Assembly: GCA_965649115.1 (NCBI GenBank)
Contig: CBFGJN010000027.1
Location: forward strand, 1 to 23,376
DNA length: 23,376 nt
Direction: 5' to 3'
From: a candidate division WOR-3 bacterium
GTDB taxonomy: Bacteria; Hydrothermota; Hydrothermia; LBFQ01; DSFT01
In this document: one piece after another, positions 4,003-23,155 of the stretch
How positions within the stretch are numbered: position 1 is the first letter of the stretch
How the letters are laid out: each line of letters begins with the position of its first letter
Translations under genes and position numbers: made by a program
The notes under the pieces: generated by a model
What the model saw: only the letters and a program-made list of their open reading frames with translations
Database searches by the model: none
What the model was told of the DNA's origin: nothing

Positions 4003-4008
4003 ATTTTA
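4003..4008 (-). promoter_or_regulatory. Putative -10 box (TAAAAT) 9 nt before the ileS ATG
   Basis: Minus strand reads CTTTAAAATTTCAAGCCT-ATG; no SD. Confidence 0.6.
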
Positions 4009-4029
4009 AAGTAGAATGATTAAAAAATA

Positions 4030-4197
4030 TGCTTTAAATATGATTATTTCTATATTTTCCCCACCCACCCTATATTTAAGCCTTTGGCTTTAAAATAACC
4101 ATTTTTCGGCTATGGGGGGCTTAAATTCAATAATTTCTTTAAAAATTTTATAAGTTATTGACTATCAATCACTTAACACTATTTGCTAGACAAAGCT
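4030..4197 (+). mobile_element. MITE copy with a deletion just inside the left TIR; 8 bp TSD
   Basis: TGCTTT then internal modules; right end TTGCTAGACAAAGCT; AAAAAATA at 4022-4029 and 4198-4205. Confidence 0.8.
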
Positions 4198-4268
4198 AAA
4201 AAATAAACCTTTCCCCCCGAAAATTCAAGAGTTTTAATTAACATCATTCACCGAAGCAAGTAATGCTT

Positions 4269-4274
4269 TAAAAT
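4269..4274 (+). promoter_or_regulatory. Putative -10 box (TAAAAT) 15 nt before the rpiB ATG
   Basis: TGCTTTAAAATTTTAAAC matches the motif at other operon starts. Confidence 0.5.
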
Positions 4275-4289
4275 TTTAAACAATCTCTT

Positions 4290-4745
4290 ATGAAAATTGC
4301 TATTGGTTCGGATCATAGAGGTTATAAACTAAAAGAAGTAATTAAAAATTATCTTCAAGAAATTAACATAAATTATCAAGATTTTGGTGTTTTCTCTGAG
4401 GAATCTTCTGATTATCCTGATATTTCAATAAAAGTTGGAGAGAGTGTTTCAAAAGGTTTATTTGATTTTGGTATTCTTATATGCTCAACAGGTCAAGGAA
4501 CAAATATAACTGCTAACAAAGTTAAAGGTATAAGAGCTGCTTTATGTTTTAATTCTACATTTGCTAGGCTTTCAAGAGAACACAATGACGCTAATGTTTT
4601 ATCATTACCAGCAGACTTTGTAAGTTATGAAGAAGCTAAAACGATTGTCTTCGTTTTTTTAAATGCTAAGTTTCTTAAAGGAAGACACGAAAGAAGAGTA
4701 AATAAAATAAAAGCTTATGAAGGAGGTGATTATGAAAAGCTATAA
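4290..4745 (+). CDS. rpiB: Ribose-5-phosphate isomerase B
   Basis: MKIAIGSDHRG, DYPD, GILICSTGQG, ANKVKGIRAA, REHNDANVL, GRHERRV. Confidence 0.96.
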   Translation: MKIAIGSDHRGYKLKEVIKNYLQEININYQDFGVFSEESSDYPDISIKVGESVSKGLFDFGILICSTGQGTNITANKVKGIRAALCFNSTFARLSREHNDANVLSLPADFVSYEEAKTIVFVFLNAKFLKGRHERRVNKIKAYEGGDYEKL

Positions 4746-5655
4746 GTACATAATTTTCTTTTCTCTTATAGCATGCGAAGGTGAAAAGATAGATTGGACG
4801 AAAGCAAAAATTGAAGATGCTTACAGACCCTATGCTATTGAAAAAGGCTTTATTGAATACAAGTACAGCGGTGAAGAAGAAGGAAAAGAAACACTTATAT
4901 TTAAAGATTATGGACACTGGCAGTTTAGAAGTAAAGAAACAAGAGCTCAAAATGTTCCCTTAAAAAAGATTGAAATAATATCTCCTGCTGAAATTGTAAA
5001 TTATAAATCAACTTGTAAATGTCTTGAATATAAAATAGTTAGAGATACAAGTGATGAAAATAGAGGTATTTATTATTATGATACATTAAAAGGTGAATAT
5101 GTTCCAGGAAATCCTTATTGTATAAAACAAAAGAAAGAGGTTAAAGAAGTTGGTGGTATAAAACAATTAGTTTGCACTGAGTACGATTGGGAAGGCTCAA
5201 TAAGACCTAATGCCATGTACTATGTTTTATCTTCAATATGGGATACTGCTTCACCAAAAACGAAACAAAAACTAGGACCACTTATGCGTCAATTTGCTAA
5301 GGAAATGTCAATTGGATTTATTTATGCTGCTGCTATTGTAGAAATGCCAACAAAGAAAGATATCGCTGGCAAAAAAACAACATTTTATAAAGTTCAAGGT
5401 AAAGATATAAGAATTTTTCTATGGAATAATATCATTCTTGGAAGTGAAGTTATAAGCGAAACGGGAAAAAAAATTTTTGTAGAAGCTATAAAAGTTGATG
5501 AAAATCCAAAAATTACAGATGATATATTCAAAATTCCAGCGGATTTTCCACCACCTGTAAAGTACGATACAACATCTTTCATATTTAAGAAAGAGAAGAA
5601 TTTAGCAGAGCAGTTAGTTAATATATACCTTTCCGAAAAAGGAGCAAATAAATAA
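4732..5655 (+). CDS. Putative lipoprotein; C-terminus loosely DUF4412-like
   Basis: Start moved from 4717 to the in-frame ATG at 4732, which follows SD AGGAGGT. MKSYKYIIFFSLIA-C has a lipobox. C-terminal KKDIAGKK...IFKIPADF pattern; family assignment tentative. Confidence 0.65.
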   Translation: MKSYKYIIFFSLIACEGEKIDWTKAKIEDAYRPYAIEKGFIEYKYSGEEEGKETLIFKDYGHWQFRSKETRAQNVPLKKIEIISPAEIVNYKSTCKCLEYKIVRDTSDENRGIYYYDTLKGEYVPGNPYCIKQKKEVKEVGGIKQLVCTEYDWEGSIRPNAMYYVLSSIWDTASPKTKQKLGPLMRQFAKEMSIGFIYAAAIVEMPTKKDIAGKKTTFYKVQGKDIRIFLWNNIILGSEVISETGKKIFVEAIKVDENPKITDDIFKIPADFPPPVKYDTTSFIFKKEKNLAEQLVNIYLSEKGANK

Positions 5656-5658
5656 GCT

Positions 5659-20810: not shown

Positions 20811-20819
20811 TTTAAACTT

Positions 20820-21779
20820 TTGGAAACAATTTTAAAAATTTCAATAATTCTCACAATAGCTTTTGTAGTATTTATAATTTTAAGGTCATTTTTTTTATTT
20901 ATTTTTAGAAGTTCTTTCTATTTTGATATTTTAAGAAGAATTTTTGGATTTGGAAGTATATTAGCAATACTGTCTTTTTTGACCTATTTGTTCTTTCATT
21001 TCTCTCAATTTAAATATGGAATAATTTTTGAAAAGTTATATGCTTCAATTTTTGTTTTTTCATTAGCATTAGTTATATCAAATTTAACTATTGGATTTTT
21101 AAAAATTTATGTTAGATCAAAAAATATCATTTTACCTCCCTCGGAATTTGTTTTTGACATCATAAAATTAATTTTCTATACTTTGGGATTTATTACAATT
21201 TTGAATATTTGGAATGTGCCTATTATACATTTTATTACAACATTTGGTATTGGAGCACTTGCCATTTCTCTTGCATTACAAGGAACACTTTCAAACTTCT
21301 TTGCAGGTCTAAACATTATTATATCAAAAAATTTAGAAATAGGTGATTGCGTTAAACTTGAAAATGGCGAAGAAGGAACAATATCAGACATAACCTGGTT
21401 AAATACAATTATCAAAAAACCTGATGGAACATATATTATCATCCCGAATTTAAGGCTTTTTAATTCTATACTAATAAATTATAAGAATTTGAAAGATTTA
21501 AAAATTATTTCACTACCAATAAAAATTAGCTATTTTAATGACATTAAAAAAATTGAAAAAATTACATTAGAAGTTCTTGAAGAAATTTATAATAATTCAA
21601 CTAACATTGATAAAAGCTTTAAACCATCTTTTAAATTCCTTGAATTTGCAGATAATTATATTCGTTTTAATGTTTATCTTAAAGTTTTAAATTATCAAAA
21701 TAAGGAAGCATTAATTGATGAATTTTTAAGAAAGTTGAAAGAAAGATATGATAGAGAAAGTGTAATTTGGTACATTTAG
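20820..21779 (+). CDS. mscS: Small-conductance mechanosensitive channel family protein
   Basis: Multiple TM helices; GIGALAISLALQGTLSNFFAG, IGDCVKL, IIIPN. Confidence 0.92.
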   Translation: METILKISIILTIAFVVFIILRSFFLFIFRSSFYFDILRRIFGFGSILAILSFLTYLFFHFSQFKYGIIFEKLYASIFVFSLALVISNLTIGFLKIYVRSKNIILPPSEFVFDIIKLIFYTLGFITILNIWNVPIIHFITTFGIGALAISLALQGTLSNFFAGLNIIISKNLEIGDCVKLENGEEGTISDITWLNTIIKKPDGTYIIIPNLRLFNSILINYKNLKDLKIISLPIKISYFNDIKKIEKITLEVLEEIYNNSTNIDKSFKPSFKFLEFADNYIRFNVYLKVLNYQNKEALIDEFLRKLKERYDRESVIWYI

Positions 21780-21948
21780 TGCTTTGCCCAATAAATGATA
21801 ATAAGTCCTTGATTATCAATAACTTACAGAAATTTTAAGAAAATTATTGATTTAAAGGGGGGATTTGCCCCCCATAGCCTAAAAATGGGCATTTATAAGC
21901 AGAAGGCTTAAATTCAGGCTAGAACTTTCAGAATTATTGGACAAAGCG
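21780..21948 (-). mobile_element. Single MITE copy (169 bp) with perfect 9 bp TSD
   Basis: TGCTTTGCCCAATAA...TTATTGGACAAAGCG; TACATTTAG at 21771-21779 and 21949-21957. Confidence 0.92.
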
Positions 21949-21953
21949 TACAT

Positions 21954-22943
21954 TTAGTTATTTTTAGTTTGATTTATACTTAAAAGCTTTATATAAAGAT
22001 TTTCAATATCTGTAGGAAATGGGACTTCAAAAGTCATTTCTTCATTTTTTGAAGGATGAATAAAAGATAATTTGTACGCATGAAGTGCTTGTCTATTTAT
22101 TGTATTTAAAATTTCATTTACAATTTCTTTATATACTGATGGAACTATTCTAAAAATTTTTCTTGTATCTCTACCACTGTAAACTTCATCTCCAATTATA
22201 GGATAACCTAAGTATTCCATATGGACTCTTATCTGATGTGTTCTTCCAGTATCAAGTTTAAGTTCTAATAGTGAAGCAATTTCTGAAAATTTTTTTAAAA
22301 CTCTATAATGTGTAATAGCTATTTTTGAATTTAATGGTGTTATCGTCATTCTCTTCCTATCAACGGGATGCCTCCCAATAGGTGCTATAATTGTTCCTTT
22401 ATCTTTTATACTCGTTCCCCAAACGAAAGCCTTATAATATCTTTTCATAATTCTTTTTTGAATTTGTTCTGCTAAAATTTTAACTGAATTTTGTGTTTTA
22501 GCAATAACCATTAATCCACTTGTATCTTTATCAAGTCTATGAACAATCCCTGGCCTTTTTCTATCTGTTTGAAATTCTAATAATTTTTTTAAAACAGCAT
22601 TTACTATCGTTCCTCTAAAATGTCCTTTTGCAGGATGAACAACAATACCAGGTGGCTTATTTATAACAATTATTTCATCATCCTCATAAACGATTGGTAT
22701 TTCAATATCCTCTGGAATTATTTCTTTTTCTTCCTCAACTTCATACTCAACGAAAATAAAATCACCTGCTTTAACTTTATATGATGGTTTATCAATTACT
22801 TTGTTATTAACTTTAACTTTCCCTTCCTTTATAAGTTCATTAACCTTACTTCTAGAAAGTCCTATCCCACTAATGGTTAAATAAATATCAAGTCTTTTAC
22901 CTTCACTATCCTTTTGAACTTTTCTTTCAAATGTCTTAATCAT
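21954..22943 (-). CDS. rluD: 23S rRNA pseudouridine synthase RluD
   Basis: N-terminal S4 domain (RLDIYL...SRS), NKPPGIVVHP, RPGIVHRLDKDTSG, TGRTHQIRVH, RQALHA. Confidence 0.93.
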   Translation of the reverse strand: MIKTFERKVQKDSEGKRLDIYLTISGIGLSRSKVNELIKEGKVKVNNKVIDKPSYKVKAGDFIFVEYEVEEEKEIIPEDIEIPIVYEDDEIIVINKPPGIVVHPAKGHFRGTIVNAVLKKLLEFQTDRKRPGIVHRLDKDTSGLMVIAKTQNSVKILAEQIQKRIMKRYYKAFVWGTSIKDKGTIIAPIGRHPVDRKRMTITPLNSKIAITHYRVLKKFSEIASLLELKLDTGRTHQIRVHMEYLGYPIIGDEVYSGRDTRKIFRIVPSVYKEIVNEILNTINRQALHAYKLSFIHPSKNEEMTFEVPFPTDIENLYIKLLSINQTKNN

Positions 22944-22951
22944 AGTTTAAA

Positions 22952-22957
22952 ATTTTA
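22952..22957 (-). promoter_or_regulatory. Putative -10 box (TAAAAT) 8 nt before the rluD ATG
   Basis: Minus strand reads CCTTTAAAATTTTAAACT-ATG; no SD. Confidence 0.6.
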
Positions 22958-22978
22958 AAGGCAGAACCTTATCTTTTG

Positions 22979-23155
22979 TGTTTTGTCTAAGAATTCTGAA
23001 ATATAGATTGTTTCTATTCTTTGCCCGCCCACCCTGTAATTAAGCCTTCGGCTTAAACTTCGCCCCCTTAATCCCCCCATTATTTCAAGTATTTCAATGA
23101 ATTTTTTATAAGTAATTGATTATCAATCACTTAACAATAATTATTAGACAAAGCA
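22979..23155 (+). mobile_element. MITE copy (177 bp)
   Basis: TGTTTTGTCTAAGAAT...ATTATTAGACAAAGCA; hairpin AAGCCTTCGGCTT at 23042-23054; palindrome at 23109-23133. Confidence 0.88.

Follow-up and report, generated by a model that had tools for sequence, protein, structure and literature searches.

The analysed window is a stretch of 23,376 nucleotides from a candidate division WOR-3 bacterium (assembly GCA_965649115.1, contig CBFGJN010000027.1, positions 1–23,376), in which several genes, named here in agreement with NCBIfam, are accompanied by copies of one MITE family. The MITEs are 137–206 bp long, have the ends TGCTTTGTCYARTAAT and are associated with a 9-bp target duplication; the two ends are designated L and R. 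The neighboring host promoters carry the motif CTTTAAAATTT, a -10-type element with the hexamer TAAAAT, which in leaderless genes lies 6–11 nt upstream of the start codon; no -35 box was seen in host promoters. Unless stated otherwise, MITE boundaries are those of nhmmer matches to a profile built from 6 window copies and run genome-wide, and genome-wide counts refer to the 1.85 Mb assembly.

The window opens with a plus-strand MITE unit truncated by the contig start (1..126; R end at 126, profile positions 74–165). A full plus-strand unit of 163 nt follows (135..297; L end 135, R end 297), flanked on either side by the 8-nt spacer TTTCTACC, and then a degenerate plus-strand unit that begins with TGCTATGTCTAG; the latter has no nhmmer match, and its extent (306..400) is approximate and set by eye. 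An internal plus-strand fragment (1149..1197; repeat families D10 and I24) lies between the gene at 428–1129 and the 3' end of ileS. The minus-strand ileS promoter hexamer occupies 4003..4008 (ATTTTA on the plus strand) within CTTTAAAATTT. It is 21 nt from the L end of a 167-nt plus-strand MITE (4030..4196) that has a 15-nt deletion close to that end and is bracketed by the duplication TAAAAAATA, read from the sequence at 4021..4029 and 4197..4205. The R end of this MITE is 71–72 nt from the rpiB hexamer (4269–4274, within the plus-strand motif CTTTAAAATTT at 4266..4276).

Near the cystathionine gamma-synthase-family (PLP) gene, whose minus-strand promoter hexamer is at 15948..15953, three plus-strand units form a head-to-tail array. 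Unit 1 (15976..16139) has its L end 22 nt from the hexamer. Unit 2 (16149..16286; 137 nt, with an internal deletion) is bracketed by the duplication GATTATTTC at 16140–16148 and 16287–16295 and is hosted by the older unit 3 (16286..16390), which begins at profile position 27 and was delimited by nhmmer together with sequence reading. A second three-unit array separates the divergent promoters of acs (minus-strand hexamer at 20269..20274) and of an MscS-like gene (plus-strand hexamer at 20805..20810), and is enclosed as a whole by the duplication TATACTAAA (20287..20295 and 20791–20799). All of its units are on the minus strand: a truncated one (20296..20402), whose R end (20296) is 21 nt from the acs hexamer, a middle one (20412..20575), and a full 206-nt one (20585..20790), whose L end (20790) is 14 nt from the mscS hexamer and which contains a terminator-like hairpin (20716–20728) reading toward the L end. 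The minus-strand MITE at 21780..21948 is not at a promoter and sits between two convergent genes; its duplication TACATTTAG (21771–21779 and 21949–21957) holds the stop codons of both. Lastly, the minus-strand promoter hexamer of an rluD-like gene (22952..22957) is 21 nt from the L end of a 177-nt plus-strand unit (22979..23155), which is followed, after a 9-nt spacer, by a partial second plus-strand unit (23165..23280). On re-reading, all the distances given in the original prediction are correct, namely the hexamer gaps of 21, 22, 21 and 21 nt at ileS, the PLP gene, acs and rluD, the corresponding start-codon gaps of 36, 37, 33 and 35 nt, and the 14 and 71 nt at mscS and rpiB.

Genome-wide, the profile yields 612 matches covering 87.6 kb in total, which include 422 L and 320 R ends. 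These sequences are MITEs in the usual sense: they are short, non-coding and numerous, produce target duplications, and share their inverted ends with an autonomous element. An exact 9-bp duplication flanks 75/168 full-length units, and at least 8 of 9 positions match in 84/168, while exact flanking repeats of 10 or 11 bp occur in 0/168; in the offset comparison that served as a control, matches never exceeded 6/9. Array junctions are of the L-R type in 106 cases, R-R in 2 and L-L in none, and 90 of the 106 L-R junctions have a 9-nt spacer.

The first line of evidence for promoter targeting is the distance distribution. It was determined for "outer" ends (298 L and 163 R), excluding those with another match within 24 nt or a flank shorter than 60 nt, and was measured from the element end to the first CTTTAAAATTT match, one mismatch being allowed, over a reach of about 60 nt. 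Of the outer L ends, 170/298 lie 21–22 nt upstream of TAAAAT in CTTTAAAATTT (126 at 22 nt, as opposed to 4 at 23 nt), and 54/298 lie at 12–16 nt, with a peak at 14 nt that constitutes a second register. Only 12 are found at the remaining distances, including 5 at 20 or 23 nt, so that 7 of the 236 L ends with a motif in reach fall outside 12–16 and 20–23 nt; for the other 62/298, no motif lies within about 60 nt. The motif-less L ends are in many cases inner array members or belong to other settings, such as that of the 21780 copy. When single-unit elements only are counted, 111/189 are at 21–22 nt. The same behavior is seen in a second genome of the genus, where, among 80 L-end/motif pairs 5–30 nt apart, spacings of 22, 21 and 14 nt account for 42, 9 and 15 pairs, respectively. 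The mscS gap, which had been set aside as an exception, thus belongs to a reproducible second register (54/298 here, 15/80 in the second genome). This register shows no link to L-end subfamily or to tight space, and is partly linked to an extra TAAA 8 nt downstream (10/28 vs 15/115).

The anchor of this distance is the promoter motif and not the start codon, as had been proposed: distances measured to the hexamer have a standard deviation of 0.44 nt and those to the start codon one of 2.49 nt (n = 134), and promoters of tRNAs and leadered genes share the register. Among the 182 targeted motifs, an ORF starts within 25 nt of 159; leadered genes carrying a Shine-Dalgarno sequence lie downstream of 16, and tRNAs downstream of 3. 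Elements keep to the same registers where the hexamer is the variant TAAACT or TATAAT. The gap between element and motif is host DNA, in which positions 0–13 from the element end show no conserved bases. An element end lies within 44 nt of 197/409 strong promoters. Hundreds of copies are accommodated without broken genes because the element lands just upstream of the promoter motif.

The second line of evidence is orientation. Among the 163 outer R ends, 3 are at 21–22 nt, 4 at 12–16 nt and 21 elsewhere, and 135 have no motif; the difference from L ends at 21–22 nt is highly significant (Fisher test, p = 8e-39). The suggestion that either end can face the promoter therefore does not hold: R ends occupy this position in only 3/163 cases, acs among them, and insertion is strongly oriented. 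The acs spacing is a by-product of the array's L end, which sits in the 14-nt register of the divergent mscS promoter. The orientation probably stems from the unlike element ends, which at positions 13–18 read TAATTC in the L end, as in the right end of the related insertion sequence (IS), and TAAATA in the R end, as in the IS left end.

The third line of evidence comes from this parent IS, whose right end matches the MITE L end and whose left end matches the MITE R end. Judged by sequence similarity, the parent is an IS903-like element of the IS5 family. Both of its ends are located on contig ends; its interior was not found in this assembly, and no complete copy was found in the assembly, its relatives or public contigs. 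Its length of about 1052 bp (67 + 903 + 82 nt) is accordingly a reconstruction from the two ends and the length of a 300-aa transposase, P0001, drawn from a protein collection and not from this genome. The IS coding ends show 100% identity with P0001 residues 1–19 (on 7 contig ends) and 288–300 (on at least 8), and residues 1–56 match the IS coding end in this genome at 93%. According to Pfam, P0001 comprises PF01609 (DDE_Tnp_1; 4.8e-25) and the N-terminal PF13737 (DDE_Tnp_1_5; 2.3e-20), and the scan revealed no extra domain able to explain promoter reading. P0001 is 26.6% identical to the IS903/IS903B transposase over residues 4–290 (96% of its length; E about 1e-13), and about 30% identical to those of ISVa1 and ISAba10. 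Among 16 IS right ends on contig ends, the first TAAAAT is at 22 nt in 10 and at 21 nt in 1; in one further case the hexamer of the full motif, identified by eye from the flank, is at 22 nt. Three of the 16 abut MITEs and one has no motif. Thus, non-nested IS copies have the right end 21–22 nt from the hexamer in 12/13 cases, and 0/10 IS left ends are so placed.

The element resembles IS903/IS903B in transposase architecture, full-length similarity, the 9-bp duplication and ends, and its reconstructed length of about 1052 bp compares with 1057 bp for IS903; the IS left end TGCTTTGTCCAATAAATA is identical to the IS903 end GGCTTTGTTGAATAAATC (plasmid locus L027) at 14/18 bases. A 1998 study by Hu and Derbyshire reportedly concerns the orientation preference of IS903. 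The IS903 target pattern, as tabulated in Table 1 of PMC2577343, is the palindromic WTTYA-N9-TRAAW, which was not seen in the base frequencies around the duplications here. The WOR-3 element differs from IS903, as far as that table describes it, in having a promoter anchor instead of a palindromic target, and the target pattern does not define the IS903 group.

It is, in our opinion, highly probable that the MITEs are moved by an IS of the IS903 group and that the choice of promoter motifs as targets is intrinsic to the transposition reaction. The mover would be an IS5-family element about 1.05 kb long that encodes a DDE transposase of 300 aa, with the element being joined at a fixed distance and in a single orientation relative to CTTTAAAATTT. 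The promoter-facing MITE L end corresponds to the IS right end, downstream of the transposase gene. Its first base is 21–22 nt upstream of TAAAAT, which, with the hexamer numbered -12 to -7, puts the duplicated 9 bp at approximately -34 to -26; the lesser register is 8 bp nearer the promoter, at 14 nt. Insertion at this spot would be harmless because the promoter requires nothing upstream of the motif, and repeated insertion into the same 9 bp would produce head-to-tail arrays with 9-nt spacers. The bias would then have arisen at insertion and not by later loss. Since all extant copies have already passed selection, selection may have contributed some share of the sharpness or orientation.

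How the promoter would be read can be stated with less assurance. Chances are close to even that the transposition complex recognizes the motif DNA or its shape, and a tether to bound polymerase/sigma or to another motif-binding protein is a serious possibility of somewhat under even probability. In the specific form in which the complex is tethered to RNA polymerase/sigma on the promoter, with protein geometry setting the distance and the motif DNA unread, the tether appears plausible at about one chance in three. Joining points near -35 and -27 would fall within the DNA usually regarded as covered by bound holoenzyme. Moreover, two registers of the same orientation 8 bp apart are unexpected from one rigid tether, and the transposase has no added domain. 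On the other hand, all promoter kinds (leaderless, leadered and tRNA) are targeted, the variants TAAACT and TATAAT are also used, and the sole published bacterial parallel, TnGBS/ISLre2, is defined relative to sigma-A promoters (PMC3942029).

The exact spacing could alternatively have been retained after loose promoter-proximal insertion because the L end helps its host, as an upstream promoter element or an insulating terminator. The terminator-like hairpin (AAGCCGAAGGCTT followed by TTATTTAG) reads toward the L end and the downstream promoter and could favor one orientation. However, over 200 different promoters would all have to gain the same benefit, and the 1-kb IS would have to confer it too; the TAGACA of the L end, which resembles a -35 box, would be 27 nt from the hexamer, too distant to act as one; and a terminator does not need single-base spacing. 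We therefore regard this explanation as improbable. Still less credible is near-random insertion, with selection purging closer copies and tiny ancestral gaps barring farther ones, which had been put forward as the alternative to targeting. The genome is compact (87% coding by our own ORF calls), and behind 25 of the 121 arrays at 21–22 nt, non-element DNA continues for no more than 20 nt; behind the remaining 96 it continues for more than 20 nt, and the counts nevertheless drop from 126 at 22 nt to 4 at 23 nt, with just 7 L ends farther out than 23 nt. Under a null of random insertion into reconstructed empty intergenic gaps (223 arrays, median 121 nt), an L end at 21–22 nt is expected in 1.7–2.6% of arrays, vs 84 of 167 L edges seen; for the outer L ends, of which 170/298 are at this distance where 2–3% would be predicted, the binomial p is 1e-184. 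The genome-wide histogram that had been proposed as a check has a sharp 21–22 nt peak far above expectation. Near-random insertion also leaves unaccounted for the bias of 170 L vs 3 R ends and the presence of near-identical IS copies in the same register. The idea that the element carries the motif itself, as a mobile promoter whose distance would be trivially fixed, accords with the motif being always on the same element side, but is ruled out by the duplications, as the intervening 18–19 nt are unconserved and include the 9-bp target duplication repeated beyond the other end, and 212/409 strong promoters lack an element end within 44 nt.

Oriented insertion at promoters has a published bacterial counterpart. 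TnGBS ICEs and ISLre2/ISKra4, whose prokaryotic Mutator-like DDE transposases form an unrelated family, are described as inserting in an oriented manner 15–17 bp upstream of the -35 box, with the right inverted repeat adjoining the promoter and the orientation ascribed to unlike ends (PMC3942029). The ends are unlike here too, from position 16 on. The WOR-3 element works like TnGBS/ISLre2/ISKra4 and is not a member of that group: its transposase combines PF01609 and PF13737, belongs to the IS5 family and does not classify as Mutator-like (p-MULT). It also differs from TnGBS/ISLre2, as portrayed in the relevant part of that report, in its distance of 21–22 nt from a -10-type hexamer, its second 14-nt register and its more than 600 MITE copies. 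Because host promoters have no -35 box, the element occupies the would-be -35 position.

Tn7 inserts at attTn7, one site per genome, by means of a dedicated targeting protein, and the yeast retroelement Ty3 is brought to RNA polymerase III genes by a transcription factor to which it is tethered. Like these elements, the WOR-3 family attains a safe harbor through a set distance from a landmark on neighboring DNA or a bound protein; unlike them, it has sites that number in the hundreds and have a short promoter motif in common, and it has no known accessory protein. Our literature search found no report of oriented promoter homing by IS903-type elements. We tentatively suggest that IS903-type transposases may have a built-in, oriented sense of the promoter's upstream edge (motif or polymerase), with two registers 8 bp apart, which could be a general safe-harbor strategy in small, gene-dense genomes, and that the resulting arrays may shape transcription; if so, arrays could act, for example, as insulators between neighboring genes.

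Correia elements and other prokaryotic MITEs, as surveyed in the pertinent part of PMC10969869, are likewise short, non-coding, abundant and intergenic, with inverted ends and duplications, and are often upstream of genes. Their described preference is for intergenic or upstream positions, whereas the present family shows an oriented register of single-base precision and occupies about half of the strong promoters.

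The window, which is the whole of contig C27, belongs to an assembly of 1.85 Mb in 99 contigs with 27.6% G+C, and one repeat occupies its intergenic gaps in several copies. Alignment of the six window copies defines a modular MITE of 137–206 bp with inverted-repeat ends TGCTTTGTCYARTAAT. Beyond the inverted repeats the two ends diverge: one, termed L, runs on as TAATTCTGAAAT, and the other, termed R, as TAAATATTGTTAAG. A profile of the six copies yields 612 matches on 92 contigs of the genome, 87.6 kb in total, or ~37% of the ~238 kb of non-coding DNA. An Rfam scan of the window found no family.

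The sequence CTTTAAAATTT precedes the first gene of every operon in the window (3991–4011, 4263–4289, 12962–12982, 15936–15956, 20260–20277, 20802–20822, and 22941–22960). These genes begin 6–11 nt past it without a Shine-Dalgarno sequence; internal genes, by contrast, either carry an AGGAGG-type ribosome site or overlap the preceding gene. Genome-wide, 367 of the 910 copies of CTTTAAAAT have an ORF of at least 80 aa beginning 6–11 nt past the TAAAAT hexamer. In a profile built from 629 such sites, a C three bases 5′ of the hexamer stands out, TTT follows the hexamer, and a −35 box is absent. The motif is also found 9–15 nt ahead of mature tRNA 5′ ends and is therefore a transcription signal, not a translation signal. 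The motif sites are leaderless promoters with no requirement upstream of the motif and, given the distance of 6–11 nt to the start together with the missing −35 box and Shine-Dalgarno sequence, most operon-first genes appear to be leaderless.

The original prediction placed MITE ends 21–22 nt upstream of this hexamer at four genes, and direct reading bears out every gap to the base: 21 nt at ileS (hexamer 4003–4008, element from 4030), 22 nt at the PLP-enzyme gene (15948–15953, from 15976), 21 nt at acs (20269–20274, from 20296), and 21 nt at rluD (22952–22957, from 22979). The gene names agree with NCBIfam, and the distances from the start codons are, as proposed, 36, 37, 33, and 35 nt. For the genome as a whole, 422 L and 320 R ends were found. 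Ends with another match within 24 nt or with less than 60 nt of flank were set aside, which left 298 L and 163 R ends; the distance was taken to the first motif with at most one mismatch. Among L ends, 126 lie at 22 nt, 44 at 21 nt, 5 at 20 or 23 nt, 54 at 12–16 nt with a peak at 14, and 7 elsewhere within ~60 nt, while 62 have no motif. The corresponding counts for R ends are 2, 1, 1, 4, and 20, with no motif at 135. The difference between L and R at 21–22 nt is significant at p = 8e−39 (Fisher test), so the proposal that either end may face the promoter does not hold: L does so at three of the four genes and R at acs only, and just 3 of 163 R ends fall at this distance genome-wide. Single elements considered separately give the same peak (111 of 189 L ends at 21–22 nt), which makes the effect independent of resident copies. 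The hexamer is indeed a tighter anchor than the start codon, with standard deviations of 0.44 and 2.49 nt, respectively (n = 134). Seen from the promoter side, among 409 promoters defined stringently, an element end lies at 21–22 nt in 119 and at 13–15 nt in 36; 212 have no element end within 44 nt.

The same spacing could in principle arise if selection removed closer insertions and tiny ancestral gaps limited farther ones. A null model was accordingly built from 1712 ORF-based genes with the matches merged into 428 arrays, and the empty intergenic region was rebuilt for those 223 arrays that lie between two genes with flanks of 9–400 nt (median of the rebuilt region, 121 nt). Uniform insertion in random orientation would place an L end at 21–22 nt in 1.7% of arrays, and forbidding the promoter-to-gene zone raises this expectation to 2.6%; in fact 84 of 167 L edges lie there, as opposed to 3 of 103 R edges. 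The peak thus stands far above anything expected from available space. Moreover, 96 of the 121 arrays at 21–22 nt have over 20 nt of additional non-element DNA behind them, flank lengths being upper bounds here because unrecognised old copies may be included. Lack of space cannot be the reason why 126 L ends lie at 22 nt and only 4 at 23 nt, and the explanation by selection and tiny gaps fails with the space model.

The insertions are products of transposition, and the DNA between element and motif belongs to the host. In 75 of 168 full-length units the adjoining 9-mer is duplicated exactly, whereas the offset control gives at most 6 of 9 matches throughout; the 18–19 nt separating element from motif show no conservation. 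Duplications in the window are TAAAAAATA at 4021–4029 and 4197–4205, TATACTAAA flanking the entire acs/mscS array, GATTATTTC flanking unit 2 of the PLP array, and TACATTTAG flanking the copy at 21780. Arrays are joined head-to-tail: L-R junctions number 106, of which 90 have a 9-nt spacer, compared with 2 R-R and no L-L junctions. Repeated insertion in the same orientation into the same 9 bp would be expected to produce such arrays. It should be noted that the history of the PLP array goes beyond simple stacking. The duplicated target of its units 1 and 2, AGATTATTTC (15966–15975, 16140–16148, and 16287–16295), also occurs inside the element at positions 27–35, and unit 2 is embedded in an older, 5′-truncated unit 3.

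Contig ends repeatedly show two other end types, which are the two ends of a single insertion sequence (IS) that broke the assembly. At least 26 contig ends stop ~100–127 nt inside it (e.g., C5:1–124 and C29:1–126), and the fragmentation of the assembly is therefore largely due to this one IS, present in at least 16 copies. An ORF begins within the left end of the IS, where a ribosome site is also present. A search among longer proteins with the 56-aa ORF fragment retrieved P0001, a 300-aa transposase from a protein collection rather than from this genome, with 92% identity over the overlap. Residues 1–19 of P0001 are matched at 100% identity on 7 contig ends, and residues 288–300 likewise on at least 8 contig ends bearing the other IS end. 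Pfam detected no domain in the 56-aa N-terminal fragment; P0001 contains PF01609 and PF13737. Neither domain was found in the assembly, where the IS interior is unassembled, and the interior was not found in 30 relatives or in genome or metagenome contig collections. The inferred length of the IS is 1052 bp. Pairs of ends 0.9–3.9 kb apart were considered as a possible autonomous element; five of 13 candidate pairs were inspected, and all five hold MITE-flanked host genes. P0001 is 26.6% identical to the IS903/IS903B transposase across 96% of its length and ~30% identical to those of ISVa1 and ISAba10, and the ends of a plasmid copy of IS903, GGCTTTGTTGAATAAATC, match the left end found here at 14 of 18 positions.

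The left end of the IS resembles MITE R and its right end resembles MITE L. Analogously to MITE L ends, the first TAAAAT lies at 22 nt from 10 of 16 IS right ends and at 21 nt from 1; the right end on C51 has a full-motif hexamer at 22 nt, as read from the printed flank, and of the remaining ends 3 adjoin a MITE after 9 nt and 1 is without a motif. None of 10 left ends lies at 21–22 nt. The register of the right ends implies that the IS inserts with its transposase gene co-directional with the host gene and its right end at the promoter.

The 21–22 nt pattern, an element end followed by 18–19 nt and CTTTAAAAT, occurs 142 times in this genome and 53 times in G002, another genome of the genus, the latter evidence being a pattern count rather than a full histogram of L against R. 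It was found in none of the other 39 of 41 class genomes sampled, one more genome of the same genus included. G002 has 80 pairs of L end and motif 5–30 nt apart: 22 nt accounts for 42 of them, 14 nt for 15, and 21 nt for 9, and the other 14 have other distances. Regions upstream of ileS and acs in four genomes of the genus were considered as orthologous empty sites and proved too rearranged to align across the insertion point. In two of the genus genomes, G003 (locus L014) and G004 (L012), a tRNA gene stands between the motif and ileS, ending ~17 nt short of the ileS start codon. In G002 (L011) an element is present at the ileS promoter, its L end apparently 14 nt from the hexamer as opposed to 21 nt here. 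Over the first 14 nt of the gap the two genomes share homologous sequence, and the G002 element lacks a clean duplication; it could be an independent insertion at the same promoter in the other register.

This second register is reproducible, accounting for 54 of the 298 L ends in this genome and for 15 of the 80 pairs in G002, and it accommodates what had been taken for an exception, the gap of 14 nt at mscS. The acs and mscS hexamers are divergent and just 26 nt apart in the rebuilt empty site; consequently, an L end 14 nt from mscS puts the R end of the array 21 nt from acs, which is one of the only three R ends in the genome at 21–22 nt. The 71 nt at rpiB is correct as a distance, but rather than an exception it reflects the R side of the ileS insertion, which is not anchored. 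The two registers are 8 bp apart, which is also the period of a direct repeat within TTTAAAATTTTAAA. A TAAA 8 nt past the hexamer start is commoner in the 14-nt class (10 of 28 vs. 15 of 115) and accounts for only part of it. Three other causes were considered and rejected: an L-end subfamily (no position among 45 differs at p < 0.001), tight upstream space (median 98 vs. 63 nt, p = 0.17), and loss of 8 bp after insertion (7 of 16 full units of the class retain intact 9-bp duplications).

In our opinion it is very probable that the target is chosen during transposition: distance and orientation both point to this, as do the way near-identical IS copies behave and the inability of the space model to account for the peak. 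Direct reading of the motif DNA or of its shape would accommodate both the two registers and joining points within polymerase-covered DNA; bound polymerase is generally held to cover the DNA containing those points. Tethering of the transposase to polymerase or sigma would fit the use of all promoter types, and it matches a published parallel. According to the part of that study drawn on here, TnGBS, ISLre2, and ISKra4, whose transposases belong to one Mutator-like lineage, insert at sigma-A promoters in a fixed orientation, 15–17 bp upstream of the −35 box; the right repeat adjoins the promoter, and the orientation is attributed to the unlike ends. The same part states no targeting mechanism (PMC3942029). 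The IS903-like transposase described here, of an unrelated and very common type, shows the same promoter-anchored behaviour. The IS903 target pattern is listed as palindromic in Table 1 of PMC2577343, and a 2024 review of prokaryotic MITEs, in the portion consulted, gives intergenic and upstream locations only (PMC10969869). In literature searches, promoter-anchored insertion turned up neither for IS903-type elements nor for their MITEs.

The significance of these results lies in more than 200 independent events in one genome, placed with single-base precision and with a second discrete register. Promoter-anchored insertion explains how a genome of 1.85 Mb tolerates more than 600 copies. Promoter finding by a transposase becomes testable in a small system, namely a 300-aa protein, ends of 16–18 bp, and a target motif of 11 bp, and such a transposase could serve as a tool for insertion beside a defined short motif. 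For annotators, element ends flag promoters, which is useful in a lineage with leaderless genes.

The copy at 21780–21948 is, as originally stated, away from any promoter: it lies between convergent genes, both of whose stop codons are inside the duplicated 9-mer. The MITE inserted where the stop codons of the MscS-like and RluD-like genes overlapped, and the duplicated 9-mer (21771–21779 and 21949–21957) restores a separate stop codon to each gene. At 20716–20728, and at the same place in other copies, the MITE contains a terminator-like hairpin, AAGCCGAAGGCTT followed by TTATTTAG, which points to the L end, that is, towards the downstream promoter, and might block read-through out of the upstream gene. 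Finally, the array at the contig start (1–427) turns its R side to the gene at 428, which has the variant motif CCTTATAATTTT; the promoter targeted by this array is presumably located past the contig end.
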